This document shows positions 19,049 through 34,437 of a stretch of 64,000 bases of DNA, one piece after another. The notes below the pieces were generated by a model that ran no database searches, was not told the DNA's origin, and saw only the letters and a list, made by a program, of their open reading frames with translations. The stretch lies in NCBI GenBank assembly GCA_039028615.1, contig JBCCHT010000027.1, positions 139,873 to 203,872 of the forward strand, in the 5' to 3' direction. Within the stretch, counting starts at the first letter, position 1, and the number at the start of each line of letters is the position of its first letter. A program made the translations under genes and the position numbers. The DNA is from Myxococcota bacterium (GTDB lineage Bacteria > Myxococcota_A > Polyangia > Nannocystales > Nannocystaceae).

Positions 19049-19178
19049 CACTCGAGGTCAACGGCACAGTCGCTCTCGAACGCTGCGGGGGCACGGCGGT
19101 GAACTTGGTCCGCCACACGAGCGCCTCGAAGCACGACCCAGTGCGACCGGAGCTCGAATTTATTTGTCACCGACTTGC

Positions 19179-19207
19179 TTGACGAGGCCCCGCTCGTGCC
19201 CTAAAGA
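19179..19207 (+). promoter_or_regulatory. Candidate sigma70 promoter of leader/tRNA-Asp/tRNA-His unit
   Basis: TTGACG-N17-TAAAGA preceded by an AT-rich tract; the same -35 box occurs upstream of the tRNA array. Confidence 0.45.
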
Positions 19208-19242
19208 CAAAGAACCGCGTCACTTCGACGCGTGCATTCGTC

Positions 19243-19320
19243 ATGAACCGCTCCGCGCAGACTCATCGCCACCATCATGTGGTGATCGTGCATTCGATGC
19301 ACGATATCTGCCCGTGTTGA
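19243..19320 (+). CDS. Putative His-rich leader peptide MNRSAQTHRHHHVVIVHSMHDICPC (25 aa)
   Basis: Translated by hand; 6 His (4 CAT); overlaps hairpins; homologous in layout to the leader at 32597-32692. Confidence 0.6.
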   Translation: MNRSAQTHRHHHVVIVHSMHDICPC

Positions 19321-19400
19321 GCGGTTCCCGGCGTTTGTACCCAACTTGATGGACTTCGCCGGGCCTCTCGGCACGGGCGACCCCTCACCCATTCGTTGGC
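19285..19400 (+). promoter_or_regulatory. Structured leader/attenuator-like RNA element
   Basis: 9-bp triloop hairpin 19285-19305; long hairpin 19310-19378 (GCCCGTGTTGAG/CTCGGCACGGGC and CCCGGCG/CGCCGGG); CATTCGTTGGC motif 19390-19400. Confidence 0.6.
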
Positions 19401-19441
19401 CATGTCGACCGAGCCCCATTTGGCTCGAAGACGGGGCCCAC

Positions 19442-19513
19442 GGGGTCGTGGCGCAGTGGTAGCGCACCCGGTTGTCAGCCGGAAGGTCGCGGGTTCGAAT
19501 CCCGTCGGCCCCG
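19442..19513 (+). tRNA. tRNA-Asp(GTC)
   Basis: GGGGTCG/CGGCCCC acceptor, GCGC D-stem, loop TT-GTC-AG, T-loop TTCGAAT, G73; C27-A43 mismatch; followed by CCG rather than CCA. Confidence 0.9.
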
Positions 19514-19628
19514 CCGAGTCGTTGTCTGTCGACTCTCACCATCTTCTTACTCAACCACTCAACGACAAACACATCATGAACAACATCGAGCAATCCAACG
19601 GCGAGGACGACTCGACCCATCATCCGAT

Positions 19629-19705
19629 GGCGGGTGTAGCTCAGTAGGTAGAGTGCCGGAATGTGACTCCGGTGGGCGCCGGTTCGAGCCCGGCCACTCG
19701 CCCCA
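19629..19705 (+). tRNA. tRNA-His(GTG)
   Basis: Encoded G-1 opposite C73, GCGGGTG/CACTCGC acceptor, CCGGA-AT-GTG-AC-TCCGG anticodon arm, encoded CCA. Confidence 0.92.
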
Positions 19706-19746
19706 CAAATTCCTCCCCATGCGGTCTCATCGGCTGGCCACCTCGG

Positions 19747-20457
19747 CTAGATCCGAGGACCGCGAGACTTCGACCGGTCGTAGATGACCTCGGTCACCGC
19801 GTAGGTCGGCGTGTACTCCAGCACGTTCACCACCGGGTTCTTCGCGCCCGAGAGGCCGTACACGGTCCTCAATCCCCGCAGCAATACATCGAGGTACAGG
19901 CGTTCGTAGAGGTTCTCGGGGTAGGTGATCCGTCCGAGATTCCCGTTTTGGTTGCGCTCCAAGTGCTCGCGCTCGGTGCCGCGACGGAGCGCCCTCCAAC
20001 GCTTCGATGCACCCCTGGACAGCCTACCGGGCGAAAGCACGGCAAAGATGACCCGATACAGCGGTCCTGAGAGCGTCGCGCGTAGGTTGCGTTCGCCCCA
20101 GTCGAGATAGTCCTCATCGCTCCCGAAGAACGCCTCCCGCAGCGTGCCGTTCAGCGCGATCATATGAGCCTCCGGCACCCACCCCGAAGGCAGCGGCAAC
20201 GGATCGAACATGGCCTGCACCGGCTCCGGCAGCCGACTCAGGTCGAAGCCTTCGGGCGGGTTCTCGAGCACCCCGCGAACAAACGAGCCTTTGACCACCG
20301 CCTCGGGGTAGGAATCGAGGCCGTCGGGCAGCGTGCTCAGCCACTCGTCCGTCCGCGGAAAACCCTCGAACTGCCCCACCCGATCACGATACCGCGACGG
20401 CGACTTTTCCCTGTGGCCCGGGCCGGGCCATGGACCGCGGGTTTTCCCCGCGTTCAT
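19747..20457 (-). CDS. Hypothetical protein, possibly myxobacterial TIGR02265/DUF2378-like
   Basis: VVKGSFVRG...LPSGWVPE pattern recalled from this family; true start probably downstream of 20457. Confidence 0.5.
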   Translation of the reverse strand: MNAGKTRGPWPGPGHREKSPSRYRDRVGQFEGFPRTDEWLSTLPDGLDSYPEAVVKGSFVRGVLENPPEGFDLSRLPEPVQAMFDPLPLPSGWVPEAHMIALNGTLREAFFGSDEDYLDWGERNLRATLSGPLYRVIFAVLSPGRLSRGASKRWRALRRGTEREHLERNQNGNLGRITYPENLYERLYLDVLLRGLRTVYGLSGAKNPVVNVLEYTPTYAVTEVIYDRSKSRGPRI

Positions 20458-20557
20458 CGGCGGTTCTACTACAGCACTCGCGCCCAGCCATGGTTGGCAG
20501 TGATCTCGGGTTCGCAGATCATGCGAGACCAGTCCGCGAGCAACACGGCACTGCCGA

Positions 20558-21508
20558 TCAGTCGGCGCGAAGCGTGCACGTGTCGAACCCCGCGCTCAGG
20601 ATCTCGGCGTCGAGATCGAGCCCCAGAATCACGAGCCGGCTCGTCCGATCGGCATCGGCCCAGGGCAGCCCCAGCGTGACCTCGATCGCCTCGCCGACCC
20701 CCTGGAGGATCACGCGTTCATCGACGCCATGCACGGCGAGAATCCCCTTGATTCTCGCGATCTTCGTCTGAATCGCGCCCAGCGTGGTCTCCACCCAGTG
20801 CCCGAAGCGGTCCTCGTCCAGCTCCCCGTCGTGGACCAGGGACACGGCCTTGATCCCACGGTGTTGGCCTCGGGCTTCTTTCGGCACGACTCGAAGCACC
20901 CCGGCCCGCGCCGCGAGCAGTTCCTCGAGTGAGCCTGCGTTCGGATCGTCCAAGCGTCCTCTCCGCGCTCGCGCGAACACGGCTCCGGGGGCATAGGGGG
21001 TCAGCTCCTCCGCCCGCGCGGTCACATCTGATTCCGTGCACTCGTCCACATGCGACATCACGACGACATCCGCGAACCCGAGCTGCTCGATCGTCAGGTC
21101 GTACCGTAGCGCGCGGTGGGCCCGCGCCACGTCGATGACTGTGACCACCCCGTCGAGTCGAAGCCGGTCCCGCGCCGTGCCCCAGGTGAGCGCTCGGATG
21201 ACACCAGCGGGCGAGGCCGCCCCCGAGGTCTCGACCACGATCCGTGACGGCCGGGGCGTGGCGTGAGCGAAGCCGGTCAACGCGGCATCGAGCGCGGCCT
21301 GGGTCGTGCAGCACACGCAGCCCCCGGTGATCTCGAGGATCTGCGATGCACGCGAGGCCAACAGGGCCCCATCGATCCCGACCTCGCCCTGCTCGTTGAC
21401 GATCACCGCCGTATCGGAAGGCAGAGCCAATAGCCAACGGTCGAGCAGCGTGGACTTGCCCGCTCCAAGAAAGCCCGTGACGACGGTGACGGGGATCGGC
21501 GAGTCCAC
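20558..21508 (-). CDS. CobW/COG0523 family G3E GTPase (putative metallochaperone)
   Basis: TGFLGAGKST, NExGEVGID, GGCVCC, ETSGAA, C-terminal RIKGIL...QGV domain. Confidence 0.92.
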   Translation of the reverse strand: MDSPIPVTVVTGFLGAGKSTLLDRWLLALPSDTAVIVNEQGEVGIDGALLASRASQILEITGGCVCCTTQAALDAALTGFAHATPRPSRIVVETSGAASPAGVIRALTWGTARDRLRLDGVVTVIDVARAHRALRYDLTIEQLGFADVVVMSHVDECTESDVTARAEELTPYAPGAVFARARRGRLDDPNAGSLEELLAARAGVLRVVPKEARGQHRGIKAVSLVHDGELDEDRFGHWVETTLGAIQTKIARIKGILAVHGVDERVILQGVGEAIEVTLGLPWADADRTSRLVILGLDLDAEILSAGFDTCTLRAD

Positions 21509-21710
21509 CTGGCCAGTTTAGCAAGCCACGGTCGATGCTCGTAGGCGAAGGGAGCGCTGCGTCGTCCCGACGTCTCTGGCCGCTGCGGAGCCCTCTCGGG
21601 CACACGCGCCGCGATGGCCGGGCTCGGGCGTTCCACGTTGTCTAGATCGGGCAACACTGTGACGCCATTGGCCACTGCCGCCGTCGGGGTTCTCGCCGCA
21701 CGCTCGGAGC

Positions 21711-22673
21711 ATGCACTCGAGACCGAGATTGTGCTCCCTCTTCGCGTCGTTTCTGGTGATGGCGACGGCGTGCGGCGAGTTCGGATCGATCGACAACCCC
21801 GACATGGACGAACTCGACGCGACCGCACTCGCCCAGGTCCGGCTCGGGCACGCGCTATTCTTCGACCCCGGACTCTCTGGGACGGGGGACGTGTCGTGTG
21901 CGTCATGCCATGACCCGGCCGCCTTCGGTGTGGATGGGCTCGCGCGATCCGAGGGAACCGGAGGCGCGACCGTGAGCCGCAACGCACCGTCGACGTTCAA
22001 CGCGGCGCTCAAGGACCTCCAGTTCTGGGACGGCCGCGCACAGAGCCTGGAAGAGCAAGTCGTGGGGCCCCTGTTCGCTCCGAACGAAATGGGCCAAACC
22101 GAGGAAGGACTGCTCGAGCACGTGCGTGAAACCTGGGCGGACGCGTTCGCGGCGGCGTTTCCCGCCGAAGATGGGCCCACGCTCGAGCAGGTCACCCGCG
22201 CCATCGCGGCCTACGAGCGGATGCTCCCGCGTCGGTCTGCGTTCGACCGCTTCGTCGACGGCGAGCGCGAGGCCCTGTCGGCGCAGGCGCGTCGCGGCTA
22301 CAGAATCTTCCGCCGTAACTGCTCCAACTGCCACGATGGCCCTGCGCTCGGACACGGACTGCAGAAGCTCGGGGACAAAGTACCCTGGCCCGACGACCGA
22401 CGGACGGACCTCGGGAGGCTCGAGGTCACGGGGAACCCCGACGACGCAATGGTGTTCGCCGTCCCCTCGCTCCGCAACGTGGCCGAGACCGGTCCGTGGT
22501 TTCACGATGGCAGCGTCGAGACGCTCGAAGAAGCGGTCCGGCTGATGGCGCGCCACCAGGTGGACCGACGCTTCACGGAGGCGCAGGAGGGCGCGGTCGT
22601 GGCCTTCCTTCGCTCGCTGACCGCCGAGGACGTGCAGCCCTGGGCGTTCGAGGACTGGGAGGGCGGACTATAG
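21711..22673 (+). CDS. Di-heme cytochrome c peroxidase (CCP/MauG family), lipoprotein
   Basis: CASCH and CSNCH heme motifs, RNAPS, QFWDGRA, VPSLRNVAETGPWFHDG. Confidence 0.92.
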   Translation: MHSRPRLCSLFASFLVMATACGEFGSIDNPDMDELDATALAQVRLGHALFFDPGLSGTGDVSCASCHDPAAFGVDGLARSEGTGGATVSRNAPSTFNAALKDLQFWDGRAQSLEEQVVGPLFAPNEMGQTEEGLLEHVRETWADAFAAAFPAEDGPTLEQVTRAIAAYERMLPRRSAFDRFVDGEREALSAQARRGYRIFRRNCSNCHDGPALGHGLQKLGDKVPWPDDRRTDLGRLEVTGNPDDAMVFAVPSLRNVAETGPWFHDGSVETLEEAVRLMARHQVDRRFTEAQEGAVVAFLRSLTAEDVQPWAFEDWEGGL

Positions 22674-23696
22674 GTCTCGACGAAACACGGCGGGCGTGGT
22701 GCCGAACCAGCGTCGAAACGCCCGATGAAACGAGGCCTGGTCCCGATAGCCGAGCAAGAACGCGACCTCCGCCTGCGACACCTTCGGATCGGAAAGCAGC
22801 GTGCGGGCGCGTTCCTGCCGGACCGCGGAGAGGAGCCCGCCGAACGTCTCACTCTCTTCTTTGAGGCGCCGGGCCAGCGACCGTGACCCGAGCCCGAGGT
22901 CGCGGGCGATTGCATCGGCGGTCGGCGTTCCATCCGACAGCCGCCGCTCGATCATCGCGCGGACCTTGTCCACCCAGCCGAGTTCGCTGACGTCCGGGGC
23001 AGCCTGCTCGAGGATGCCGCGAAAGTAGGCGGACAGCTCCAGGTCGTGGGAAGGCAGGGGCCGCACAGCGAGTGCGGCCGGAATGACGAGCGCCGCCTTG
23101 GCATGCCCCGCTTCGATGGGGGCCCCGGCGAACGCTTCCCACGAGCGTCGCTGTGCCTCTGGGATCTCCGCCCGGCGCGAGCGCAGCCGTTGAACCGGGA
23201 CGTCCGGGCCGACCAGCGTCCGAATTAGCTGAACGGCAACGAGGAGCGTGTAGTCGGACAACAGCTGCGAGCCGGGCGTAGCCGGACCGAAACGCGTCTC
23301 CTCGATGAAGACGGCCTCGCCCTCGAGCCGAGCGTCGTATCGCGCGGTCCGATTGGTGAGTTCCTGGTAGCGACCATGCCGGGCCATCGCTTCGCCCAAG
23401 AACGCGGACGTTTTACACGCCAGCCCTACGACGCCCAGGCTCGTGGCGGTGTGTCGCTGCACGGCATCGAGCACGAACTCCGGGAAGCCTGGCCGTGTGG
23501 CCATCCACGTCATGTGCTCATACGTCGACGCGCCCGAGACCGTGGCGCCATCCCGCGCGATGAGTTCCGCCGTCCAACCGAGCCGGGCTTCGAGCTCCGA
23601 CTCGGTTACCCCGGCCTCGAGCGACGCCTCGAAGGCGGGGCGCACGTTGCAGACGTCGATGTCCAGCTCGGCCAACGGGTGGTCAGAGTCGGGCAT
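22668..23696 (-). CDS. AraC family regulator (arabinose-binding-like N-domain, OruR-type)
   Basis: C-terminal IARDLGLGSRSLARRL and VAFLLGYRDQASFHRAFRRWFGTTP; start MPDSD. Confidence 0.88.
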   Translation of the reverse strand: MPDSDHPLAELDIDVCNVRPAFEASLEAGVTESELEARLGWTAELIARDGATVSGASTYEHMTWMATRPGFPEFVLDAVQRHTATSLGVVGLACKTSAFLGEAMARHGRYQELTNRTARYDARLEGEAVFIEETRFGPATPGSQLLSDYTLLVAVQLIRTLVGPDVPVQRLRSRRAEIPEAQRRSWEAFAGAPIEAGHAKAALVIPAALAVRPLPSHDLELSAYFRGILEQAAPDVSELGWVDKVRAMIERRLSDGTPTADAIARDLGLGSRSLARRLKEESETFGGLLSAVRQERARTLLSDPKVSQAEVAFLLGYRDQASFHRAFRRWFGTTPAVFRRDL

Positions 23697-23880
23697 GCGC
23701 GCGCCCGAGGTCAAGCCGCTGCGTCTGCGACGGCGGTTCCAGCACTGCGTGCGGCTCTCCTCGTTCCGAGCCCAGACGAGCTCGACCGATCGCACCGAGC
23801 GCCAAGGCTCGATCCTGCACACTGCCGAAGCATTGTCGCCGTGTGTCGGAAATTTGAGGGTGTTACGGTCGAACCTGCTC

Positions 23881-24705
23881 ATGAAGGCTTCGACCACCCG
23901 CCCATGTGTTCTCGTTTGGATGCTCTCGATGGGCCTCGCGGGATGCGACGCGCCCCCCGAGCCCGACCACCAGCAGTTTCGAGTGGGGGAAGAGACGAAC
24001 GAGGATGATGGAGGGGAAGACGGAGGCAACGAAGGAGCCGTGAACAACGCTCCTCCATCGGGCTGGGGCACGTACGTCCCCTGTCCGAGCGGAGACCCAC
24101 TCGCGACACCGATGTTCATCCCGATGACGCCGATGCCTTCATTGAGCGGCAGCGTCCTGGACAGCGAAGGGGCACCAGACGCCTTCATTGCGGGCTGCAT
24201 CCAGGAGTTCAATGGCGGCGCGTGCGGAGACTTCCGAAAGTCCACGCCCGACGAATGTATCGACGACACGATGCTGCGGGAGTTCGATGGCGGCAACGGA
24301 GCGTGCTCGCTGAACCTGTACGCCAAGTCGTACGACTGCGATGCGTTGTGCAAGGCCCTGGGTGCGCTCGGTGGTGAGTGCCGACAAGACCAGCCGGTCG
24401 TGTGCAAACCGGACGGGACAACCGTCGACTCGGCCTATTGCGCTTGCAACGGTCTCATTGCCGGCAGCGGCACGGACGACGGCGGTACCGGGGGCGACGA
24501 TGCTACGACCGGCATGGCGACCATGGGCGGCACGGGAACGGGCTCCATCGAGTGCGACTACGAGCCCGAAACGGGCACTTGGGGCGGCTTCACGTCCTCG
24601 GGCACCACGGGCGGCACCACGTCGACAGGCACGACAGGCGGCACTACGTCATCGGGCACCAGTTCATCGGGCACCACAGGCGGCACTTCTTCATCGGGTT
24701 CCTGA
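23881..24705 (+). CDS. Cys-rich lipoprotein with Ser/Thr/Gly tail
   Basis: LAGC lipobox, about a dozen Cys, C-terminal SGTTGGTTS repeats; divergent from the AraC gene. Confidence 0.65.
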   Translation: MKASTTRPCVLVWMLSMGLAGCDAPPEPDHQQFRVGEETNEDDGGEDGGNEGAVNNAPPSGWGTYVPCPSGDPLATPMFIPMTPMPSLSGSVLDSEGAPDAFIAGCIQEFNGGACGDFRKSTPDECIDDTMLREFDGGNGACSLNLYAKSYDCDALCKALGALGGECRQDQPVVCKPDGTTVDSAYCACNGLIAGSGTDDGGTGGDDATTGMATMGGTGTGSIECDYEPETGTWGGFTSSGTTGGTTSTGTTGGTTSSGTSSSGTTGGTSSSGS

Positions 24706-24711
24706 GCCCCG

Positions 24712-25311
24712 CTACGTTTTCCTCGAAGCTCTACGATCGCCCACGAGTGGTGAGGACCGGTCGATTTTCACCACCCTCGATGCTCGGGTGCCGATCCGGA
24801 TCTTCACTGCGTCGACCTGGGACCGGTCCGCGACGAGCCCGAGACTATGGAAGCCAATCGCCGTGAGCCCAATGCCGGCGACCTTGATTTGGACGCGCAC
24901 CTGCACTGTCCGCCCTGTGAGCGTCGGTGGCTTGCGGCGCACCCGATCGGAGATTGAAGCGGTGGTCCACAAGACGACGACCAGTGACTCTCGGCGGAAA
25001 TCGACCCCGACGCTCTCGAACCAGGACTGCCACGCGTCCTGGTCATTCACTTTGTACCGCTCGCTGATTTCGCCGATGCGCTCGTGAAATCGCTTCCAGC
25101 TGCGGGGGGTGGTGAACACCGCGGGGGAGATGAGCACGTCCGACGTCAGGCCCGACTCCGGGGGCTGCGGCGTCGATCGGAAGGCAGGGCCTCCGGGGGC
25201 GGTCGGGCCTTCACCGACTCGGCACGCGGACACGACGGCCGTGCTCGCGATCCCCAGCGCGAAATGTCGCCGGGGTAGAGCCTCACGAGGTTTGTTGGAG
25301 AACAGGCTCAT
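24712..25311 (-). CDS. Hypothetical Tat lipoprotein
   Basis: PRRHFALGIASTAVVSAC twin-arginine signal plus lipobox. Confidence 0.55.
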   Translation of the reverse strand: MSLFSNKPREALPRRHFALGIASTAVVSACRVGEGPTAPGGPAFRSTPQPPESGLTSDVLISPAVFTTPRSWKRFHERIGEISERYKVNDQDAWQSWFESVGVDFRRESLVVVLWTTASISDRVRRKPPTLTGRTVQVRVQIKVAGIGLTAIGFHSLGLVADRSQVDAVKIRIGTRASRVVKIDRSSPLVGDRRASRKT

Positions 25312-25381
25312 GTCGGTATGCCAAGCCATGCTGCAGAAGCGACGCTGTCTGGGGACGATGGGCGCGCGGCGTGACTGCGCT

Positions 25382-25684
25382 TCAGCTCAGGTGCCCCTCG
25401 ATGGAGGCGAGCACCTGCTGTCGTTCACTCTCGGAAAGCCGCTCGTTCCACCACTCCGCGAACGCCTTGGGCACCCCCTCGGGTAATCCCTCGTCGAGTA
25501 GCGTACGCGCGGGGACCTCGTAGCTCGCTCCGAAGTTTCCGAAGCTCGAGCGTGCGTTGAGCTGGATGACACCGACGCCGAACGACACCGTCCCGTCTGG
25601 CCGAATCCAGACCGTGAGATCTTCGAGGACCTGTTCCGAGACCTGCACCTTCTTTTCGAACAGCCGGATCTGATCGGGGGGCAC
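25382..25684 (-). CDS. Hypothetical protein (100 aa)
   Basis: Protein-like composition and GC3-biased codons; no motif recognised. Confidence 0.5.
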   Translation of the reverse strand: MPPDQIRLFEKKVQVSEQVLEDLTVWIRPDGTVSFGVGVIQLNARSSFGNFGASYEVPARTLLDEGLPEGVPKAFAEWWNERLSESERQQVLASIEGHLS

Positions 25685-25788
25685 ACCTTCAACCTAGCAC
25701 GCCCGAAGACGCGGACCCTTGGAAACGATGAACACAAAGAGCGTAGTATCCCGGCTCCGCCCCGCTCACCATTTCTCTAGGACAACAC

Positions 25789-26610
25789 GTGCGCCCACTC
25801 GAAGAACTGCCTCATCGCTTCTGGCCCAAAGACCGACTCCCCGAGGGCGTCAAACCGCGGAGCAAGTTCAGCAACCAGAAGATCGCCAAGCTCAAGAGCG
25901 CGTACGGTAAAGCGGTGAGCCCGGTGCTGCGGGCCGAGGGTTTTCGCTGTGTGGGCACCAAAGGCAGCCGCCAGCAGGACTGGCTATGGCAAGGCACTTG
26001 GCTGCTCGGTGGCAAGTACGGAGGCAAGGCGTGGATCTTGATGTGTGCGCATCCCCCGGGCTTCCCCGCGCGCAACGAGTACGAGGTGCGCGCGCCTTTC
26101 GAGGTGCCCCAGTGCCTGTTCAAGCGCACCGTTCGCTTCTTCGACGGCCCGTCGGGCGACGAGTTCGATCTGGGCACTGCCGCGGAGACACCGGAGACGG
26201 TGGCGATCATGGCCGAGGCGGTTGCCGCCGATGGGTTGGCGTACCTGAGTCGCCTGGAGAATGCCCGGGAGCGCTTGCTGTCGGTCACGGCGGAGACCTA
26301 CGACACCCTGATGCCCGAGACCCACACCGAGCTCGGCCTTTCGGTCACCGACAGCGCCTTCGAGGATTCCGAACGCGCGCGGCTCGAGCTTTGCCTGTTC
26401 CTGCTGAGGATCCATCGAGAGGCGGGCACCGACGCCGTACGAGGGCTAGCCGACGCCGGACTGGCCGCGTTCGACCAACAACCCGAGCTGCGAGGCACCA
26501 AGCACTACCTCACGCGGATCCTGCTGGAGCGACTTCCCAGCGGCGGCCCGCTGCATGCCACCGACGAAGAAAAGCAAGCGGCCGAGGCAGCGTGGAGGGC
26601 CGACCAATAG
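25789..26610 (+). CDS. Hypothetical protein (DUF4304-like N-terminal pattern)
   Basis: VSPVLRAEGFR pattern resembles DUF4304 proteins (from memory); good codon bias. Confidence 0.55.
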   Translation: MRPLEELPHRFWPKDRLPEGVKPRSKFSNQKIAKLKSAYGKAVSPVLRAEGFRCVGTKGSRQQDWLWQGTWLLGGKYGGKAWILMCAHPPGFPARNEYEVRAPFEVPQCLFKRTVRFFDGPSGDEFDLGTAAETPETVAIMAEAVAADGLAYLSRLENARERLLSVTAETYDTLMPETHTELGLSVTDSAFEDSERARLELCLFLLRIHREAGTDAVRGLADAGLAAFDQQPELRGTKHYLTRILLERLPSGGPLHATDEEKQAAEAAWRADQ

Positions 26611-26614
26611 CCGA

Positions 26615-26860
26615 GAAAGGCCGGCCGCGGCCGCTCGCTCAGGCGCACCGTCACCCAACCGGCCTCGTCGGCATAGACGGCCCCAGCCAAGACCGCTCCG
26701 AGTCCGCCGCCGAGTTGCCCCACCGAGAGAGGTGCCTGCACACGACACGATGATCAGTGGTTTGCGGCCGAGACGTTCGCTGAGCCGACCCGCTCGAGGA
26801 CCGAAGGACACGCTCGCGATCCCACCGATCACGAACACCATCGCTCGATTCCGGTTCAGG
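26615..26860 (-). pseudogene. MFS transporter remnant
   Basis: MFS motif A GRLSERLGRKPLII in one frame and SVGQLGGGLGAVLAGAVY in another; far too short for a full MFS. Confidence 0.6.
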
Positions 26861-26863
26861 CCC

Positions 26864-27739
26864 TCACCGAAGTGACACGCCCAACGACACCGCGACGAAG
26901 TGCAGCCAGTTTCGGTTGAAGCCGTCGGAGAGCGGGTCGGGATCACTCGAGGTTCCGCGAGCTCCACCCGCGAGGTAGCGAACGTTGAGGAACGTATCGA
27001 CGCCGCGCTTCCAGGCCAACCCAGCCCGAAGCGAAGTGTCGAGGATTGCTCCCTCGACGTCGGAGCGACCGCCATTCAGGTACCGAATCGGAGCGTAGAA
27101 GCCGGTCGCTTCGGCGCCCATCCAGAAGTTGCGATGGACGAACCCACGGCCACGAAAGGCCAGCAGGGGCACGGGCCCGACATCTCGGACGCTGCGAAAC
27201 GCACTGCCGTCTTGCGCTGCGTACTCGAGGTTGGCGTTGCGGATCTGAAGCGCGACTCCAACCGCGACCTCCCGGTCATCCTCGAGAAAGTCGTACAGAT
27301 AGGTCCCGCGCCAAAACGGAAAACCGTAGCGAAAGTCGAGCGCGGTACCGGCGGGGAACACCACGTCCTCGACCCGCAGGTCGCGGTCCGTCACCGCTCG
27401 GGTCTGGAGGTCGAGCGGCTGATAGAGCAGCGCAATCGTGTGTCGACGTTTGCGTCCGATGTCGAGATCCGCGGAGAAACGCGCGAAGGGGAACAGAGTG
27501 TCTTGCCCCAGATCGCGCCGGAGGTCGACATAGGTGCCTTCGCGTCCCAGCTGTAGGCGATGAGACGCGACGGCCAAGAACCCGAGCTCTGCCTGCAGAC
27601 GGACGGCGACGGGCCGTTCCGGATCGTTGATGACCGAGTCCTTCGCCTCAGGGCTACCTGCGTGGGCGTAGGTGGGACACAGCAGGGACCACGAGGTCAC
27701 CGCGAGCAGGAGGACGAGGAATCGAATCGAGGAAGACAT
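26864..27739 (-). CDS. Putative outer-membrane beta-barrel protein
   Basis: Signal peptide ending AHA, amphipathic strands, C-terminal VAVSLGVSLR. Confidence 0.65.
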   Translation of the reverse strand: MSSSIRFLVLLLAVTSWSLLCPTYAHAGSPEAKDSVINDPERPVAVRLQAELGFLAVASHRLQLGREGTYVDLRRDLGQDTLFPFARFSADLDIGRKRRHTIALLYQPLDLQTRAVTDRDLRVEDVVFPAGTALDFRYGFPFWRGTYLYDFLEDDREVAVGVALQIRNANLEYAAQDGSAFRSVRDVGPVPLLAFRGRGFVHRNFWMGAEATGFYAPIRYLNGGRSDVEGAILDTSLRAGLAWKRGVDTFLNVRYLAGGARGTSSDPDPLSDGFNRNWLHFVAVSLGVSLR

Positions 27740-28265
27740 GATGGTGGGTCGACTGTGTGGGGGTCGATCACAACGTTGACCAAAACCCCCGAGGTGCAAC
27801 GACCTGGCCTTCCATGCTCCTCGTACGCGACGCTACGGTCATTGCGCGCCCCCGACTTCGCGCAGGCAAGCCCAACACCGCGCCGTCTCGGCCCTGCGTG
27901 GAAACAGCGAGTCGGTGGTTGCCAGCGAACGCGAAGCACCAGCCGTGTCGTCGTTCCCTTTATTGGGAAGTGACCCATCGCTCTCGCTCCGAATGACTGC
28001 GTCTCCGTGAAGCGAACGGAGCGCGAATTGGACACCATACGCCGCTCAGCGGCCCGTAGCGGCCAGTTGTTTGACAGCGGAGAACCCTCCGTCAAACCAA
28101 GGGAGGACTCGAGATCCTCGGGTTCGTCCGGGACGCGGCTCGCACGGCGATGGGTTGCTGCGACGCCGAGTGGACTGGCGATCGCGGGACCTTCGACCCG
28201 TTTCGTGCGTGCGTCTCGTCGTCTGCCCAGGCATCGAGGCCCCAGGTCTCGAGAAGGATGCGTTC

Positions 28266-28442
28266 ATGCAAAAGGTAAAGTTCTACACGGGCCTTTCGGC
28301 CTTCGTCTCTCTCGTTTTCTCCGTGACGTTGTGGTTCTCGGGGCACAAGGACCAGGGGGTCTTCGTGGGCTTGTGGGTGCCCTCCATTCTCTCCCTGGGT
28401 GCCTTCATTCTCTCTGGATGGAATCACTACGATGGAAAGTGA
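28266..28442 (+). CDS. Small two-helix membrane protein (58 aa)
   Basis: AAGGA RBS; two hydrophobic helices; GVFVGLWVPSIL motif. Confidence 0.7.
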   Translation: MQKVKFYTGLSAFVSLVFSVTLWFSGHKDQGVFVGLWVPSILSLGAFILSGWNHYDGK

Positions 28443-28542
28443 TCTCTTCATCTTTGGCGTGGGAGTCTCCGTACTCTCCCCCGTGCTCTTGTCCGTGGGC
28501 ATGCTGTTGTGGGTCGGAGGGCGCCCCACGAGACGCCGTTGA
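28432..28542 (+). CDS. Small single-pass membrane protein MESDLFIFGVGVSVLSPVLLSVGMLLWVGGRPTRRR (36 aa)
   Basis: Overlaps the end of the upstream small gene; one TM helix plus basic tail; below the ORF-track cutoff. Confidence 0.5.
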   Translation: MESDLFIFGVGVSVLSPVLLSVGMLLWVGGRPTRRR

Positions 28543-28663
28543 CCTTCGCGGCCGACGAGCAACGGGTGGGGCGTGGGCTCCGGTATGCCCGGCCCCATTC
28601 GGCCGTTCACGTCCAGAGAGTCGAAAACCCCGCCCTCACCCGCTGCATCCCCTCCGCTTCGCC

Positions 28664-29638
28664 TCACGCCCCCGCTGCACACAGCGACGCGTAGCGCACC
28701 TCGTCGCCGCGCCGGGCGACCTGACCGGCCAGCTCGGGACTGGCGACCGTGGTCAGGACGATGCGAGCACGCCAACGACCGAGCTGGTCGTCGACCGCCC
28801 CCTGGCTGAGGACCAGTCCGGCGAGACGCCGCACGACCGCCTCCACGTCGGCGCGCTCGCGCGACGTCGCTTCGGCGAGCGCTGCCTCTAGGCCCTCGAG
28901 GCGGTCGTCGATCACCCGTAGCGGCCGAGCGACGGACGCACGCTCACCGAGCGCCCGTGCGACCTCGATCGCGAGCGAGCCGTAGCAGACCCGCACCAGG
29001 GGCTCCCACACGTGACGCCAGAAGGCCTGGTTGGGCGCCAGCTCGACCCCCACCACCCGACCACCGATGAGGATGATCGCGCCACGCTGATCGGGGACCA
29101 ACTCGAACTCGGCGACGAACTCGTCGAGTTGCTTGGCGAAGTGACGGAGGAAGTACTCGAGGTGTCCACCGCCGCCCCCCGTGGACGCGCCCAGCCGGGT
29201 GTTGAAGCGCGTGATGTCGGGCCACAGCTTGTCGTAGCCCGTCTCGTTGCGCATCGCGAGCGCACGGCCACGCAGGGCAGCGGGGAGCACCACCATCGGA
29301 TGCTTGTCTCGCCCGATGTAGCCCCCCTGCGACTGCTGAATGCAACGCGCAGTGTCGATCTTGACCGACTGCCCCGCCCGCATCAGCTTGCCGCTGCCGA
29401 TCGCGTGATCCTGCGCCGCTTGCCGGACCACCCACCCCGCGCCCGGAGGCACGATGGTGGGACGGTCGTCGTCGTTGCGCAGATCGACGGTACCGTAGTG
29501 ACTCGTGCCGACCTCGACGTGGGGCGGGGCGAACGTCTCGTCGTCCTCGCCGAGCAGAGGGATCACCTCCATCACGCCGACGCTCTGACGTCGACCCGTT
29601 CGGGTTCCACGCAGGATGTCTTCAACGGTGAGTCTCAT
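28664..29638 (-). CDS. ARPP-1/DUF6569-like protein (324 aa)
   Basis: QSVGVMEVIPL...LRN..DRP.IVP.G......QDH...ARCIQQSQGG and QRGAIILIGGRVVGVE match my recollection of the ARPP-1 family; ATGA overlap with the vWA gene. Confidence 0.65.
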   Translation of the reverse strand: MRLTVEDILRGTRTGRRQSVGVMEVIPLLGEDDETFAPPHVEVGTSHYGTVDLRNDDDRPTIVPPGAGWVVRQAAQDHAIGSGKLMRAGQSVKIDTARCIQQSQGGYIGRDKHPMVVLPAALRGRALAMRNETGYDKLWPDITRFNTRLGASTGGGGGHLEYFLRHFAKQLDEFVAEFELVPDQRGAIILIGGRVVGVELAPNQAFWRHVWEPLVRVCYGSLAIEVARALGERASVARPLRVIDDRLEGLEAALAEATSRERADVEAVVRRLAGLVLSQGAVDDQLGRWRARIVLTTVASPELAGQVARRGDEVRYASLCAAGA

Positions 29639-31251
29639 CTCAGCACCTCTCGATCTGCCCTCGGGGGCAGCGACGTCATGCGCAGTAGCGCATCGATCAC
29701 ACGCTTCGGCTCGTGGTCGAGCATGGCTCGCAGCAGCGAGATTCCGGACGCGTCCGGCTTGGTCATGGGTAGGGTGGGCACCAGTCCCGGCGCCAGCTCT
29801 CGCACCCCCGAGGTCTCTGCCGCGACCACGGGATTGATATGGACGATCGGAGCCCGAATGCCGATCCGCTTCAGGTGCGCGCACACGTCCGCGAACCTCC
29901 CGGCGGGAGCGTTCTCGTAGCCGTCGGAGATCACGTAGATCACGTCGGGCCGCAGTCGGAGCATCTGCAGCAAAGCGCTGGCGAGGTTGGTCTCGCCCTG
30001 CGGACGAACGAGCCGGCCGAGGTCGGGATTCGCCACACCGCCCACGTAGCGCACATGCCCGTGACCGGCCGTGTGCAGCAGCATGTCTCGAGTCGCCAGG
30101 GCGGTGGCCATGGGCCGCAGCTTCTGAGTCGTCGAGCCGAACATGGACGCCGAGCCGTCGACGATGACCCCCACCGACTCGTAGTGGAACGGGAACTGAA
30201 GCGCGGCCTTGCGAGCCTTGTCGTCCAGCGCTCGCTCGATCGGCGAGGTCATGCCCATTTCGAATGCGTAGATGTAGAGCTTCACTGCCTCCAGTCGTGT
30301 CGGGTCCATCTCGACGTCGACACCAGCGTCCTTGGCCTGACGCTGCACGGCCATGCGTTGGCCGGCCGACATGCTTCCCTTGCTCAGCTCGAGGAGCTGA
30401 GCCTTGCCCACCTTCGAGTGGTAGGTCGCGGCGATGCCTTGTAGCACCTCGAGCGGCAGCCCCTGGCCCGCGGCCAGGTCGGTCTTTGCGGCTTGCGCCT
30501 TGTAGAAGACCGGGATGGACCATGCCGTACGCTCCGCGCCCAGGATGTAGGCCACGCACTCGCGCAGCCACGCGACGGGAGCCCTGGGCGCCCATCGGTC
30601 GACCTCCTCACGCAGGATCTTGTGTTCCTTGTCGCCGATGCGCGCCGGCTCCTTGCCGAGGATCGAGCGCAGGATGCCCGTCTTCCGCACGCCCCACGCG
30701 TGGGTCAGCGCCGTGCTGAGCTTGTCGCGGTACTTGACCGCCCACCAGTCCAGCGAGCGTGCCCGCAGGAGCGTCCGTAGTACGAGCTTCCGTGCCCGGT
30801 TGGTGTTGACCCGACCGGAGCCCAGCGACTCGTCCTTACCGCGCAGCGAGACCAGCAGCCGCAGCATTCGCGTGGCCGGTAGCTCGTGCAGCAGGTCGTC
30901 GACCAGAGCGAGTTCCTGCCCGGCGCTCACGATGGAGCCCGTGCCCATGCGCGGTCGCATGAGCAGGCTACGTACGCCGAGCTGACGCGTCCGGTCCGTC
31001 ACTCCGGGCAGAGTGAGGAACGCGGCGTACAGGCCACGATCCAGCGCGAGCATGTCCCCGTGGGACCTCTGCTCCGCCGCCCGGACCTCGCCCTCGTCGT
31101 TGTAGTGCGTCGCCCGGCCCAGCCCGGTTGCCGCGTGGTCGAGGAACGAGCGTACGACGTCGCGCACTCGCTCATCGGCCACCCCAACGGGCGTCGCCCA
31201 CGTGGGCGTCACGGCCTTGCGACTCAGCTCCGTGGTCTGCATCGTATCCAT
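29635..31251 (-). CDS. Ro60/TROVE-like protein: helical N-terminal region plus C-terminal vWA domain (538 aa)
   Basis: MIDAS VIVDGSASM...GETNL...ISDGYEN; basic helical N-terminal region; size and layout like Ro60; adjacent Y-like RNA. vWA is well supported; TROVE homology is inferred. Confidence 0.65.
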   Translation of the reverse strand: MDTMQTTELSRKAVTPTWATPVGVADERVRDVVRSFLDHAATGLGRATHYNDEGEVRAAEQRSHGDMLALDRGLYAAFLTLPGVTDRTRQLGVRSLLMRPRMGTGSIVSAGQELALVDDLLHELPATRMLRLLVSLRGKDESLGSGRVNTNRARKLVLRTLLRARSLDWWAVKYRDKLSTALTHAWGVRKTGILRSILGKEPARIGDKEHKILREEVDRWAPRAPVAWLRECVAYILGAERTAWSIPVFYKAQAAKTDLAAGQGLPLEVLQGIAATYHSKVGKAQLLELSKGSMSAGQRMAVQRQAKDAGVDVEMDPTRLEAVKLYIYAFEMGMTSPIERALDDKARKAALQFPFHYESVGVIVDGSASMFGSTTQKLRPMATALATRDMLLHTAGHGHVRYVGGVANPDLGRLVRPQGETNLASALLQMLRLRPDVIYVISDGYENAPAGRFADVCAHLKRIGIRAPIVHINPVVAAETSGVRELAPGLVPTLPMTKPDASGISLLRAMLDHEPKRVIDALLRMTSLPPRADREVLR

Positions 31252-31274
31252 CGTCTCGGTCTCCGTCGTCAGGG

Positions 31275-31429
31275 GATCGTTCGCAAAAAGCAGCCCGGGC
31301 CAAGGTCGGGGCCAACTATGGGTTCCAGAACAGGAATCGAACCTGCCCTCTTCGTTTCCAACGAAGTGCGCTCCAAATGCGCCATCTGTAATGGCTCCAG
31401 AGTCCCCGAGCTACTCTTTGCGATCGATC
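31275..31429 (-). ncRNA. Y-RNA-like ncRNA enclosing a full tRNA-like cloverleaf (anticodon GGA)
   Basis: Terminal stem GATCG-A-TCGCAAAGAGTAGCTCGGG / CCCGGGCTGCTTTTTGCGA-A-CGATC, internal loop with GACCTTG, inner stem TGGAGCCA/TGGCCCCG; cloverleaf at 31319-31391. Confidence 0.7.
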
Positions 31430-31439
31430 GTAGTTGTCG

Positions 31440-31469
31440 TGGAGACCCGAATTCAGCCTCGGGTCTCCA
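31440..31469. repeat. Perfect 11-bp inverted repeat (hairpin)
   Basis: TGGAGACCCGA-ATTCAGCC-TCGGGTCTCCA between tRNA-Ile and the Y-like RNA. Confidence 0.8.
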
Positions 31470-31487
31470 GCAATTTTCATCGTTCTA

Positions 31488-31564
31488 TGGTGGGCGCGGC
31501 AGGATTTGCACCTGCGACCTCTCGGTTATCAGCCGAGTGCTCCAACTCCCTGAGCTACGCGCCC
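31488..31564 (-). tRNA. tRNA-Ile(GAT)
   Basis: GGGCGCG/CGCGCCC-A-CCA; CTCGG-CT-GAT-AA-CCGAG; non-canonical T-loop TGCAAAT. Confidence 0.9.
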
Positions 31565-31633
31565 AGGGTAATCATCGCGGGCTCGTCGAGCGAGCCCATA
31601 CCGTACATGTCCATGATGTCCTCAATCTGTCTT

Positions 31634-31708
31634 TGGTACCGGGTGAGGGAGTCGAACCCCCAACCATCAGTGTGTAAAACTGCTGCTCTACCGTTGAGCC
31701 AACCCGGC
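31634..31708 (-). tRNA. tRNA-Val(TAC)
   Basis: GCCGGGT/ACCCGGT-A-CCA; loop TT-TAC-AC; T-loop TTCGACT; G27-A43 mismatch. Confidence 0.88.
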
Positions 31709-31760
31709 GTGGGTCCAGCGGGTCGCAATCCGGCGACCCTGCGTGGGACTCACGACGGTA

Positions 31761-31835
31761 TGGAGGGCGGTGCGGGATTCGAACCCGCGATCTCCTGGGT
31801 TGCAGCCAGGCGCCTTGCCACTCGACCAACCGCCC
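31761..31835 (-). tRNA. tRNA-Cys(GCA)
   Basis: GGGCGGT/ACCGCCC-T-CCA (U73); CCTGG-CT-GCA-AC-CCAGG; TTCGAAT. Confidence 0.92.
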
Positions 31836-31838
31836 TTG

Positions 31839-31909
31839 CGGCAGGTCGCCGGGGGATCGAACCCCGTCTCGTGGAGTTGGAGTCCACGGTCTCCTCCAGG
31901 AAGCGACCC
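31839..31909 (-). tRNA. tRNA-Trp(CCA) with shortened D-arm
   Basis: GGGTCGC/GCGACCT-G-CCG; CGTGGA-CT-CCA-AC-TCCACG; intact T-arm; only about 15 nt between acceptor and anticodon stems. Confidence 0.8.
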
Positions 31910-31987
31910 ATACGAACCGAAGTACGTACAACATCGCCAGGAGCGACCGAGGATGTGAAGTGGTTGGATCATCGTCCTCGTCCTTTT

Positions 31988-32063
31988 CGGTGGACCGGGT
32001 GGGAGTCGAACCCACGACCTTCTGCGTGCAAGGCAGTTGCTCTCCCAGCTGAGCTACCGGCCC
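31988..32063 (-). tRNA. tRNA-Ala(TGC)
   Basis: GGGCCGG/CCGGTCC with G3:U70 and A73; loop CT-TGC-AC; ends CCG. Confidence 0.92.
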
Positions 32064-32190
32064 ATGGGGGTCGCATGCCCTCCTGACCGGAGGGCCTACC
32101 TCGCGGCAGCGTCCTTTCGTGAAATGTTCATGATGTCACCCGTAAAAATTGGACAGTGGGTCAAGTTTGAAGAGATGAATTGGATCCCCT

Positions 32191-32265
32191 TGTCGGGGAT
32201 CGTTGGTTTCGAGCCAACGAATGGAGGCGTTTTCAGTGCCCTCTGTAGTCTCTTCGTAGTTCCCG
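32191..32265 (-). pseudogene. Degenerate tRNA-Phe(GAA)
   Basis: Loop CT-GAA-AA; T-arm GTTGG-CTCGAAA-CCAAC; acceptor with two mismatches; no proper D-stem; ends G-ACA. Confidence 0.6.
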
Positions 32266-32270
32266 TCGTC

Positions 32271-32403
32271 CGGTGGCGAGGGCTGGAGTCGAACCAGCAA
32301 ACTTCCGTTTTCGAGACAGACGCCTTTACCTGAAACCCCTCAGTAGCCCCCGGATCGCATCCGGGCCAGGTGTCGAGGGGTTGAACCATTTGGCTACCTC
32401 GCC
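32271..32403 (-). tRNA. Atypical 133-nt tRNA-like RNA, anticodon CGA (Ser), with ~50-nt hairpin insert in the D-loop
   Basis: GGCGAGG/CCTCGCC-A-CCG; D-stem GCC/GGC; TCTGT-CT-CGA-AA-ACGGA; 5-nt variable loop; GCTGG-TTCGACT-CCAGC; insert at 32334-32382. Confidence 0.8.
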
Positions 32404-32450
32404 GTATGTGATGTGCAGTTGATCGGGTCGTGAGAAGTGAAGTTCGTGAA

Positions 32451-32632
32451 GCCAACGATGGCCACACGGGCGTACGAAGCCCTCTCGGCGTAGGGCCGAG
32501 TCAGCGTGGCTCCGCGTGGAGCCAAAGCGTCGCGGGGGCTATGCCCTCGAGCGTCCCGATGCTCGTCGTATGAATGGATTCACACCGGGAGAACGCTCAA
32601 CACGCGACAATCTCGCCCGCAAGGCGGACGAG
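32451..32632 (-). promoter_or_regulatory. Structured leader/attenuator-like RNA element of the tRNA array
   Basis: 9-bp triloop hairpin 32612-32632; long hairpin 32529-32608 over the leader stop codon; CATCGTTGGC motif 32451-32460. Confidence 0.6.
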
Positions 32633-32692
32633 CGACCACAAGGCGGCGGCCTGGGCCGACGCTGGGGTCGAGATGTTCGTGAAACGTTCCAT
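32597..32692 (-). CDS. Putative leader peptide MERFTNISTPASAQAAALWSLVRLAGEIVAC (31 aa)
   Basis: Same end (I-x-x-C, TGT TGA GCG) and similar start context as the 19243 leader. Confidence 0.6.
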   Translation of the reverse strand: MERFTNISTPASAQAAALWSLVRLAGEIVAC

Positions 32693-32732
32693 GGCGTGAA
32701 CTCGTCGATCGCCCTTTGCAGGGCGTTTGAGA

Positions 32733-32760
32733 GATGTACACGAGATTTTTGAGTCGTCAA
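32733..32760 (-). promoter_or_regulatory. Candidate sigma70 promoter of the tRNA array operon
   Basis: TTGACG-N16-TACATC with upstream A-tract (AAAAAAAATGCACAAAT). Confidence 0.45.
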
Positions 32761-32883
32761 AGACATTTGTGCATTTTTTTTTCGCCGCGCACGAGGTGCG
32801 ACTATCCAAAACTCGAAGAGGCCACTCGAAATCGTGAGTTCCGCCTGAGCTTCGCCGCCCTACGATGGAGAGGTGGTGATGCC

Positions 32884-33696: not shown

Positions 33697-33788
33697 CGGT
33701 GGGAACGCAGCGGCGGGACTCGGGCACACCTGCGGCGGATCAGCGGTGCTGGCTTACGCCGGTCATCGGTGGTGTAGTCCTGGTCGCG

Positions 33789-34409
33789 GTGAGACACGAA
33801 CGCCTCGACCCGACCGATGACACCTCCGCCACCGAGGTGTCCGACGTGCTCGCTCGCGCGTTCCAGAACGACGAGTTCTTCGTGCGTGCGTACGGGAACC
33901 CAAGCAACCGTACGCGAGCGCTTCGCGTGCTCTTCCGCGGGCTCGTCAGGCTGCACCTACCGCTGAACGCCTGCTTCGCAGCGTACGACGGAGATCAGAT
34001 CGTGGGCGCCAGCTTCTGGGCACCGTGCTCGTTTCACGCGGGATTCCTCGACAGCATCCGAGCGGGCATGGGCGGGCTGTTCCGGTATCCGATCTCACTG
34101 CTCCGCCTCATGCGCTGCGACGACCTTTACATCGGCGAGATGCAGCGCCGCGCGACGCCTGAGGCCCACTACCTCAACAGCATCGGCGTGCTCCCTGAAC
34201 ACCAGGGACGCGGCATCGGCAGTGCAATGCTGCGACACCAGCTCGAGGCCCTCGTCGATCCCACGGGCCTCGATGCGTGGCTGTGGACCAACAACGACCT
34301 CAACGAGCGACTCTATGGTCGCTTCGGCTTCGAGGTCGTGCACCGGGAGTCAATCCCCCCTCCTCGACCATTCACGGCCCGGCTGATGCACCGCGCTTTG
34401 GCGCGTTGA
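33789..34409 (+). CDS. GNAT family N-acetyltransferase (puromycin acetyltransferase-like)
   Basis: LARAFQND, HYLNSIGVLPEHQGRGIGSAML, NERLYGRFGF. Confidence 0.88.
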   Translation: MRHERLDPTDDTSATEVSDVLARAFQNDEFFVRAYGNPSNRTRALRVLFRGLVRLHLPLNACFAAYDGDQIVGASFWAPCSFHAGFLDSIRAGMGGLFRYPISLLRLMRCDDLYIGEMQRRATPEAHYLNSIGVLPEHQGRGIGSAMLRHQLEALVDPTGLDAWLWTNNDLNERLYGRFGFEVVHRESIPPPRPFTARLMHRALAR

Positions 34410-34437
34410 TCCCGAGGACCGACGGCGGATCTCGCCC

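Follow-up and report, generated by a model that had tools for sequence, protein, structure and literature searches.

How the supply of each tRNA is matched to the demand for its codon is an open question, and it is raised anew by two distant tRNA loci in a 64,000-nucleotide stretch of DNA from a Myxococcota bacterium of the family Nannocystaceae (contig JBCCHT010000027.1, positions 139,873 to 203,872 of the forward strand), which we refer to as the window. In front of each of the two tRNA arrays, one on the forward strand (leader A) and one on the reverse strand (leader B), lies a short open reading frame (ORF) embedded in hairpin-forming RNA, and the original prediction, made from the DNA alone, held that the progress of a ribosome through this ORF switches the RNA structure and controls read-through into the tRNA genes. 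The decisive point was absent from that prediction: the leader peptides draw on the very amino acids that the downstream tRNAs carry. That the leaders sense the decoding of these cognate codons is, in our judgement, very probable. With rather less assurance, and as a model, we propose that both leaders represent a family of ribosome-mediated (leader-peptide) attenuators placed before supernumerary, divergent tRNA arrays and exerting negative feedback on them.

The correspondence between leaders and arrays was evaluated on 14 leaders defined by a DNA motif alone, for which the complete arrays were retrieved. Over this set, 132 of the 427 residues are cognate to a tRNA of the downstream array, whereas permuted pairings average 72 and never exceed 119, and none of 200,000 permutations reaches the observed value. 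When a single leader per related group is kept (n = 8), 82 of 237 residues are cognate versus a mean of 41.6, and the true pairing alone, out of 40,320, reaches 82. In particular, a leader contains on average 5.0 His residues with the corresponding tRNA downstream and 0.55 without it, and the same comparison yields 2.9 versus 0.29 for Lys, 2.0 versus 0.22 for Asp, and 4.0 versus 1.2 for Met. The peptide of locus L021, MKRSTKYDHASTVTVVVDIVTHVGDKIHTC, precedes an array of Thr, Thr, Val, Asp, Val, Asp, Val, Asp, Ile, Ile, His and five Lys tRNAs, with 22 of its 29 residues cognate; in L180, 29 of 35 residues are cognate to an array of Thr, Thr, Asp, Ala, Val, Ile, Met, Lys and Gly. A locus related to leader A, L023, has the peptide MNRSTTDSHHHMRDHVVFVHSMHDICPC before Asp, Asp and His. 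Furthermore, the match follows changes in the arrays, since L022 and L026 possess a tRNA-Met together with extra Met codons compared to the related loci own_C23 and L024. Cognate NNY codons end in T in 39 cases versus 18 ending in C, the T-ending share of the genome being 0.09 to 0.33, and the density of cognate codons is 0.41 in codons 6 to 14 and 0.39 in the zone of the hairpin P1 described below, versus 0.18 to 0.25 elsewhere. For the housekeeping cluster Thr-Tyr-Gly(-Thr), no comparable ORF was found in four relatives and the window's genome, the best candidates reaching 9 of 59 and 5 of 50 cognate residues.

Other leaders in the window's genome stand before the following arrays:

leader MKRTTTKTHTTTNPVAMGSFTASNSRKFGSC: array Thr, Phe, Asn, Lys, Lys
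leader MERFTTTTPMNTERMFGMGFMFGTC: array Met, Phe
Arg/Leu-rich leader: array Arg, Leu
leader MVAHESLAHVFEFCHATAYDSSSSYAYVLGSRSSSRC: array of four Ser, then Tyr
leader MLRFPTELSTNAVCTAGVVVLIGCQQQCACVCG: array Cys, Gln

Leaders A and B share an 11-mer at the stop codon, CGTGTTGAGCG, and leaders of other arrays that lack it are unrelated, the codon match being the only common trait. Codon-matched classes without the 11-mer comprise Arg/Leu, Ser/Tyr, Cys/Gln and perhaps Pro (C43:37444-37639, C3:258280-258723, C9:257702-257854 and C1:247395-247548; L043 and L048). In the Arg/Leu class we could notice a conserved hairpin, CTCGCC-AGTTG-GGCGAG, directly 3' of the TAA stop in two genomes. We dropped as doubtful a Gly/Ala/Trp 'leader' of L047, which is 277 nt away from the array and has nothing like a promoter. 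A matched ATG-initiated ORF was not found 5' of the arrays of four Pro (L046), two Met (L051) and 15 Gly/Arg/Ala/Trp/Cys genes (L053).

The two leaders of the window consist of the following parts (UTR, untranslated region; dG, free energy).

19156..19207, forward strand: putative promoter of leader A, with an AT-rich tract (19156-19169), the -35 box TTGACG (19179-19184), a 17-nt spacer and the -10-like TAAAGA (19202-19207)
19216..19232, forward strand: P0, 5'-UTR hairpin of leader A, CGCGTC-ACTTC-GACGCG; the terminator scan reports this stem on the opposite strand
19239..19257, forward strand: segment 1 of leader A (start-codon region), CGTC-ATG-AAC-CGC-TCC-GCG, which can pair with the stop-region motif
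19243..19320, forward strand: leader ORF A, MNRSAQTHRHHHVVIVHSMHDICPC and stop, with 6 His and 1 Asp
19285..19305, forward strand: P1, hairpin within ORF A, ATCGTGCAT-TCG-ATGCACGAT, 9 bp, 3' end 12 nt from the stop; a stem of this length arises in 2 of 300 shuffles
19311..19377, forward strand: P2, long hairpin of leader A, dG -34.7, whose 5' arm is segment 2
19311-19333, forward strand: segment 2 of leader A, containing CGTGTTGAGCG (19313-19323), the Cys codon and TGA (19318-19320)
19390..19400, forward strand: CATTCGTTGGC motif of leader A, 42 nt 5' of tRNA-Asp
32733..32790, reverse strand: putative promoter of leader B, with an A-run, the -35 box TTGACG (32760-32755) and the -10-like TACATC (32738-32733)
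32710..32725, reverse strand: P0, 5'-UTR hairpin of leader B, CGCCCT-GCAA-AGGGCG
32678..32696, reverse strand: segment 1 of leader B, CGCC-ATG-GAA-CGT-TTC-ACG
32597..32692, reverse strand: leader ORF B, MERFTNISTPASAQAAALWSLVRLAGEIVAC and stop, with 16 of its 30 residues matching tRNAs of the array (Ser, Ala, Trp, Cys, Val, Ile)
32612..32632, reverse strand: P1 of leader B, CTCGTCCGC-CTT-GCGGGCGAG, 9 bp, ending 12 nt from the stop; reached in 9 of 300 shuffles
32529..32608, reverse strand: P2, long hairpin of leader B, whose 5' arm is segment 2 (32608-32583)
32608-32583, reverse strand: segment 2 of leader B, containing CGTGTTGAGCG (32604-32594) and TGA (32599-32597)
32451..32460, reverse strand: CATCGTTGGC motif of leader B, 48 nt 5' of the tRNA-like gene beginning at 32403

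This anatomy bears out what the original prediction had described. Both TTGACG boxes are in place, the similar start contexts TCGACGCGTGCATTCGTCATG and TCGACGAGTTCACGCCATG occur at the ATGs (19243 and 32692), the two 9-bp triloop hairpins share one register, each ending on GAT or GAG 12 nt before TGA, and the peptides end as stated, in DICPC and EIVAC. The 11-mer, proposed as the 5' arm of a long hairpin across the stop codon, indeed has this role and is present at just two sites of the 64-kb window, one per leader, and the CAT(T)CGTTGGC motif, noted about 40 to 50 nt before the first tRNA, lies within that distance in both leaders. With up to one mismatch allowed, this motif has five matches versus 1.1 expected, a count reached in 2 of 100 shuffles. 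As was also stated, the hairpins have no U-tract. The two leaders are too diverged for blastn, which gave no match of leader A to leader B at E<=1, and their global alignment showed no extended similarity. That their likeness goes beyond chance follows from 21 related loci in other genomes and not from the pair alone.

These loci were recovered by several searches. Within the family, 12 of the 73 genomes contain the 15-mer CGTGTTGAGCGKTYY, at 19 places in all, of which 14 are leader ORFs before tRNAs and five chance matches. An independent search with the segment 1 pattern located 43 sites, distributed over 27 of these 73 genomes; 12 of 30 examined sites are a leader with tRNA, six of them new and endowed with variant stop motifs. 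A scan of all species genomes returned at least 118 stretches, and among the 80 examined three are true leaders, with one added locus (L135). This brings the total to at least 21 loci, spread over five genera of a single family, and records carrying the element include Enhygromyxa salina strain SWB005, a Nannocystaceae metagenome-assembled genome (MAG) and a Myxococcota MAG. In the class as a whole, 33 of 401 genomes contain the exact 15-mer. It falls outside the family at 24 places, of which 12 were examined, and none of these 12 lies before a tRNA. Viral contigs gave one match, without a tRNA.

In all 21 loci the frame from ATG to TGA is open, with lengths of 24 to 66 codons, in agreement with the conservation of the ORF that the original prediction implied. 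A promoter layout composed of an AT-rich tract, TTGAC, a spacer of 16 or 17 nt and TAnnnn precedes eight tRNA arrays of the window's genome (all eight leaders); since a strict sigma-70 consensus scan did not call the promoters of leaders A and B, we term them putative. The suggestion that no described family is involved is supported as well: the Rfam scan gave no leader match and no published account was found in the full-text literature. In particular, cmscan of positions 17000-35000 at E<=1 returned tRNA-type matches only, with no leader family (His_leader, Leu_leader, Thr_leader, Trp_leader) and no T-box.

The structural statistics that follow were taken over 15 loci unless stated, and the arrays of the related loci contain 1 to 16 genes. 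In 11 of 15 loci P1 keeps a fixed register and 7 bp or more of uninterrupted pairing. At least seven different sequences make up these stems, each of which is reached in 1 to 22 of 300 shuffles, and the 3' end of P1 lies 11 to 13 nt before the stop. P2 spans the stop codon in all 15 loci, with dG from -25 to -51 kcal/mol; the shuffle control for P2, based on the arm nucleotides paired, is non-discriminating in such GC-rich sequence. Two segments are conserved at the ends of the ORF, segment 1 at its start (CRYC-ATG-RAM-CGY-WYC-RCG) and segment 2 around its stop (CGTG-TT-GAGCG-K-TTYC..GGYG). In the minimum-energy fold that includes the UTR, the ORF start pairs with the stop-region motif, which gives the 5' arm of P2 a second partner. 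The architecture of this 1:2 duplex is identical in 15 of 15 loci, and 95.9% of 195 cells pair versus at most 60.5% in slid registers, in an alignment anchored at both ends. Its energy is -27.0 kcal/mol in leader A, where 0 of 300 shuffles equal it, and -18.9 kcal/mol in leader B, where 10 of 300 do. Compensatory changes occur at two pairs, with a covariation score reached in 3 of 500 shuffles: AAC-CGC accompanies GAGCGG in the MNRS leaders, and RAA-CGC accompanies GAGCGT in the MER and MKR leaders. The pairing accounts for both the conserved N terminus M-x-R-x-T and the conserved 11-mer. RNAalifold on a MAFFT alignment of the 15 leaders returned only three trivial pairs, because the loop lengths differ, and the anchored per-locus analyses were used instead.

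In the folding models, the two partners of segment 2, namely, segment 1 and the 3' arm of P2, are mutually exclusive. When a ribosome is placed as a mask with its A site on codons 2 to 8, the predicted probability of P2 is 0.70 to 0.98 among the seven informative loci, and without a ribosome it is 0.05 to 0.57 in five of the seven. For leader A the predicted values are 0.94 to 0.96 with the ribosome on codons 2 to 10 and 0.05 with none; leader B, having only four reference pairs, lies outside this scoring. A bacterial selenocysteine insertion (SECIS) element, suggested by the succession of Cys codon, UGA and hairpin, was rejected, as non-triplet indels directly after the TGA do not keep the frame among loci.

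The ORF, its codon match, P1, P2 and the 1:2 helix are the observed elements from which the following model may be composed. A putative strong promoter would give a transcript with about 30 nt of UTR and then the ORF of 24 to 66 codons. As its codons are cognate to the downstream tRNAs and often of the rare T-ending kind, the speed of translation would report the supply of exactly those charged tRNAs. Segment 2 would pair either with segment 1 or with the downstream arm in P2. A ribosome stalled at the first regulatory codons (about 6 to 14) would mask segment 1 and let P2 form; a ribosome at the stop would mask segment 2, and after its release, or without translation, segment 1 would capture segment 2. 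P2 would be the permissive (anti-termination) fold, and without it its 3' half and the spacer would stay unpaired and the transcript would end before the tRNAs. Slow cognate decoding would, in this way, switch on the matching spare tRNAs. From the sequence we infer that the leader is translated and that regulation acts on transcription, as well as which way it responds and how it terminates; the original idea of a translated leader that switches RNA structure finds support in the tracking composition, the kept frame, the exclusive pairings and the rare T-ending codons.

The output step is less clear cut, and several observations there weigh against the model. No U-tract terminator exists on the sense strand of leaders A and B, that is, no classical Rho-independent 3:4 hairpin; a trp-like terminator sought between the 3' arm of P2 and the downstream sequence gave no consistent hairpin among loci; and a small terminator hairpin in the 3' half of P2 does not exceed shuffles in most loci, being convincing in one related group only. 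The C/G ratio of about 1.3 in the 5' part of the ORF, the spacer after P2 and the spacers between tRNAs is a weak Rho-site signature. Since a U-tract is lacking, termination would probably be factor-dependent (Rho-like), and a role for Rho itself is a tentative proposal, to which we give somewhat less than an even chance. Before the first tRNA, about 80 to 110 nt are unpaired when P2 is open and about 40 nt when it is closed (37 to 40 nt in compact loci). From these lengths and the missing terminator we infer that the open state would lead to factor-dependent termination and P2 to read-through, so that a stalled ribosome would mean ON, a direction that we regard as reasonably likely on these models.

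On the side of the sensor, there is no Shine-Dalgarno sequence 5' of either ATG, the covariation of the 1:2 helix is modest, with 5 of 13 pairs invariant, and in two of the seven loci (L026, 0.98; L021, 0.77) P2 is already the prevailing fold in the predictions with no ribosome. The two folds are 0.7 to 4.5 kcal/mol apart in five of six loci and, being nearly isoenergetic, would leave any switch to kinetics, with the folding order during transcription deciding. Single leaders are moderately enriched (binomial p of 6.7e-3 for A and 7.3e-3 for B), and among 60 tRNA units genome-wide three have p<1e-4, where permuted sets give 0.48 on average and at most 3, a weak excess. One genus has some long, weakly enriched leaders (L028, 1 of 40 residues cognate), and related loci are mutually non-independent. 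Finally, the architecture fits the opposite logic equally well.

Under that opposite logic the sensor would be the same, but P2 would act as a U-less terminator or block, which the 1:2 helix or a ribosome on the stop would prevent; smooth or absent translation would give read-through, and a cognate stall would turn the array off as an amino-acid-specific, stringent-like brake. P2 is in fact the strongest and most constant hairpin across the 15 loci, the stop codon within its 5' arm would allow a terminating ribosome to melt it directly, no separate downstream terminator was found, and compact loci leave no more than 37 to 40 nt between P2 and the first tRNA. There is also a precedent in the pyrBI attenuator, where the ribosome prevents the terminator hairpin. 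We nevertheless consider this logic unlikely: P2 likewise has no U-tract, the shutting off of spare tRNAs upon slow reading would be a self-reinforcing loss with no evident benefit, and, to our knowledge, the leader-peptide attenuators with cognate codons all induce on stalling.

It is also possible to hypothesize that P0, P1, P2 and the 11-mer form a translation-free element for processing, stability or anti-termination and that the ORF is incidental, a view consistent with conservation being strongest at the nucleotide level (the invariant 11-mer), with the absent Shine-Dalgarno sequence and with long stems being typical RNase III substrates in stable-RNA operons. Such an element would not explain why ATG and TGA stay in frame without an intervening stop in every locus despite the varying length, why the peptide composition tracks the downstream tRNA set, why rare T-ending cognate codons are favored and why the unrelated leaders of other arrays have nothing but the codon match in common, and we regard it as very improbable. 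Even less credible, in our opinion, are functional small peptides (a RiPP precursor, a toxin or a signal with a C-terminal Cys) merely adjoining tRNA genes. The N terminus M-x-R-x-T and the C-terminal Cys are conserved in the motif class, but the RNA pairing accounts for both ends, the middle of the peptide is unconserved and tracks the tRNA content, and no modifying enzymes or transporters lie nearby. The neighbors in the window (a Ser/Thr kinase, CobW, a cytochrome c peroxidase, an AraC regulator and a GNAT acetyltransferase) are ordinary chromosomal genes.

The genes behind the leaders form a set apart. The window's genome (12.3 Mb) has 86 tRNA genes, and every one of the 27 array tRNAs shares its anticodon with a non-array gene, although the identity to the best non-array counterpart is only 40 to 77%. 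Its arrays, of two to seven genes each, are sorted by amino acid and jointly cover 18 amino acids, Gly and Glu missing. Array B consists of seven tRNA genes, and the two arrays of the window comprise the following features:

19442..19515, forward strand: tRNA-Asp (GTC), 63% identity to the non-array tRNA-Asp
19576..19647, forward strand: mini-ORF MNNIEQSNGEDDSTHHPMAGVAQ and stop inside array A, reading into tRNA-His
19630..19705, forward strand: tRNA-His (GTG), 71% identity to the non-array copy
32272..32403, reverse strand: tRNA-like gene with anticodon CGA; ARAGORN reports only 32344-32272 (the final 73 nt), and the Rfam tRNA match, 27 bits, is below the cut-off
32223-32213, reverse strand: further copy of the motif CATTCGTTGGC in array B, upstream of tRNA-Ala
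32096..32131, reverse strand: mini-ORF MNISRKDAAAR and stop, 5' of tRNA-Ala
32063-31989, reverse strand: tRNA-Ala
31909-31840, reverse strand: tRNA-Trp
31835-31761, reverse strand: tRNA-Cys
31708-31634, reverse strand: tRNA-Val
31564-31488, reverse strand: tRNA-Ile
31391-31319, reverse strand: tRNA-Ser(GGA)

All three Ser codons of leader B are TCG, which is read by the anticodon CGA of the first gene of its array. In this tRNA-like gene the acceptor stem is perfect over its 7 bp (GGCGAGG/CCTCGCC), and an additional stem-loop of 49 nt separates the D and anticodon arms. Other array genes also deviate: 'Ser(GGA)', of 73 nt, and 'Leu(CAG)' (C43:37444), of 77 nt, both lack the long variable arm, and tRNA-Trp has a short D arm, its best Rfam match being tRNA-Sec at 27.8 bits, below the cut-off. 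The motif copy at 32223 is the 5' arm of a hairpin, CGTTGG-CTCGAAA-CCAACG.

The mini-ORFs within the arrays match the next tRNA, His for MNNIEQSNGEDDSTHHPMAGVAQ and Ala for MNISRKDAAAR, and both begin with ACATCATGAAC. Comparable ORFs occur 5' of tRNA-His in L023 (MNHARHTEADDESAHHPMAGVAQ..) and in L021 (MSHHDHHHRHTDEVASATDSPEHHPYGV.., with 8 His), and L021 has MYTHVYIHDTHDSPAGDLL.. in three copies 5' of tRNA-Asp. They may represent a second tier of control, with the ribosome stalling before the tRNA body or invading the tRNA. More broadly, we see about even chances that these bacteria hold a second, divergent and partly non-canonical tRNA set in amino-acid-sorted arrays, each gated by a codon-matched leader and some tRNAs with an extra mini-ORF reading into the tRNA body, by which decoding speed would be measured per codon class and tRNAs in short supply topped up. 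If true, this would amount to tRNA-specific feedback on tRNA genes and a possible backup against the loss of housekeeping tRNAs to tRNA-cleaving toxins or phage attack.

As for the surroundings, the gene upstream of leader A (15233-19048, forward strand) encodes a 1271-amino-acid (aa) Ser/Thr kinase with many TPR repeats, a neighbor of array B (28664-30595, reverse strand) encodes a 643-aa protein with an ARPP-1 domain, and several ORFs of 200 to 1000 aa in the window have no Pfam match.

Codon-matched leaders probably let this marine myxobacterium tune each tRNA set to the speed at which its codons are read, a control that appears to be undescribed for tRNA genes, as we found no published account of leader-peptide control of tRNA genes in the full-text literature. 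According to a 2021 paper (PMC8421152), the mechanisms of differential tRNA gene regulation are largely unknown. If correct, our reading would provide a direct isotype-specific feedback, give spare tRNA arrays a function and suggest natural codon-specific biosensors, and the U-tract-free variant may be instructive for attenuation in bacteria of high GC content. Since the cultured Enhygromyxa salina carries the element (L104), the idea can be tested at the bench.

Among known systems, the L-array of Anabaena likewise consists of supernumerary, divergent tRNA genes in arrays. It is normally silent and induced when translation is impaired, and its control has been ascribed to direct repeats in the promoter, a putative repressor site, in a paper that contains neither 'leader' nor 'attenuat'. 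Different from the L-array, with up to 43 genes for most amino acids and an HNH endonuclease/mobile context, the arrays considered here are short (1 to 16 genes), sorted by amino acid, provided with their own codon-matched leaders and, in the window, flanked by ordinary chromosomal genes. The T-box also senses the supply of a specific tRNA and controls genes of the aminoacylation pathway, but it binds the tRNA directly, without translation, whereas the present element has an ORF and no T-box match in Rfam.

A closer parallel for the output is offered by Rho-dependent leader-ORF attenuators such as tnaC and mgtL. In Mycobacterium, conditional termination is shaped by upstream ORFs (uORFs) and Rho, according to 10.1101/2022.06.01.494293. 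In all of these, as in our model, the position of the ribosome would govern the exposure of unstructured RNA and a U-tract is unneeded, with GC-rich organisms among them; different from them, Rho is here proposed from geometry (about 80 to 110 versus about 40 nt unpaired), and the C/G skew is weak.

For the sensor, the nearest relatives are the leader-peptide attenuators trpL, hisL, leuL, thrL, ilvL and pheL, together with pheST and its pheM leader. Leader-peptide attenuation of amino-acid operons is treated in PMC1183508 and PMC3082878. In the leaders described here, the regulated genes are tRNAs instead of enzymes or synthetases, no U-tract terminator or 3:4 hairpin is demonstrable, segment 2 contains the stop codon, the start-codon region itself serves as segment 1 and an extra hairpin, P1, lies within the ORF. 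In common with those attenuators, a short leader ORF is enriched in codons cognate to the regulated supply; as in the trp attenuator, segments are predicted to compete for a downstream partner, with segment 1 masked by the stalled ribosome; and, as in the thr and ilv leaders, the sensing is multivalent. If our reading is true, attenuation would extend from amino-acid supply to the decoding machinery itself.

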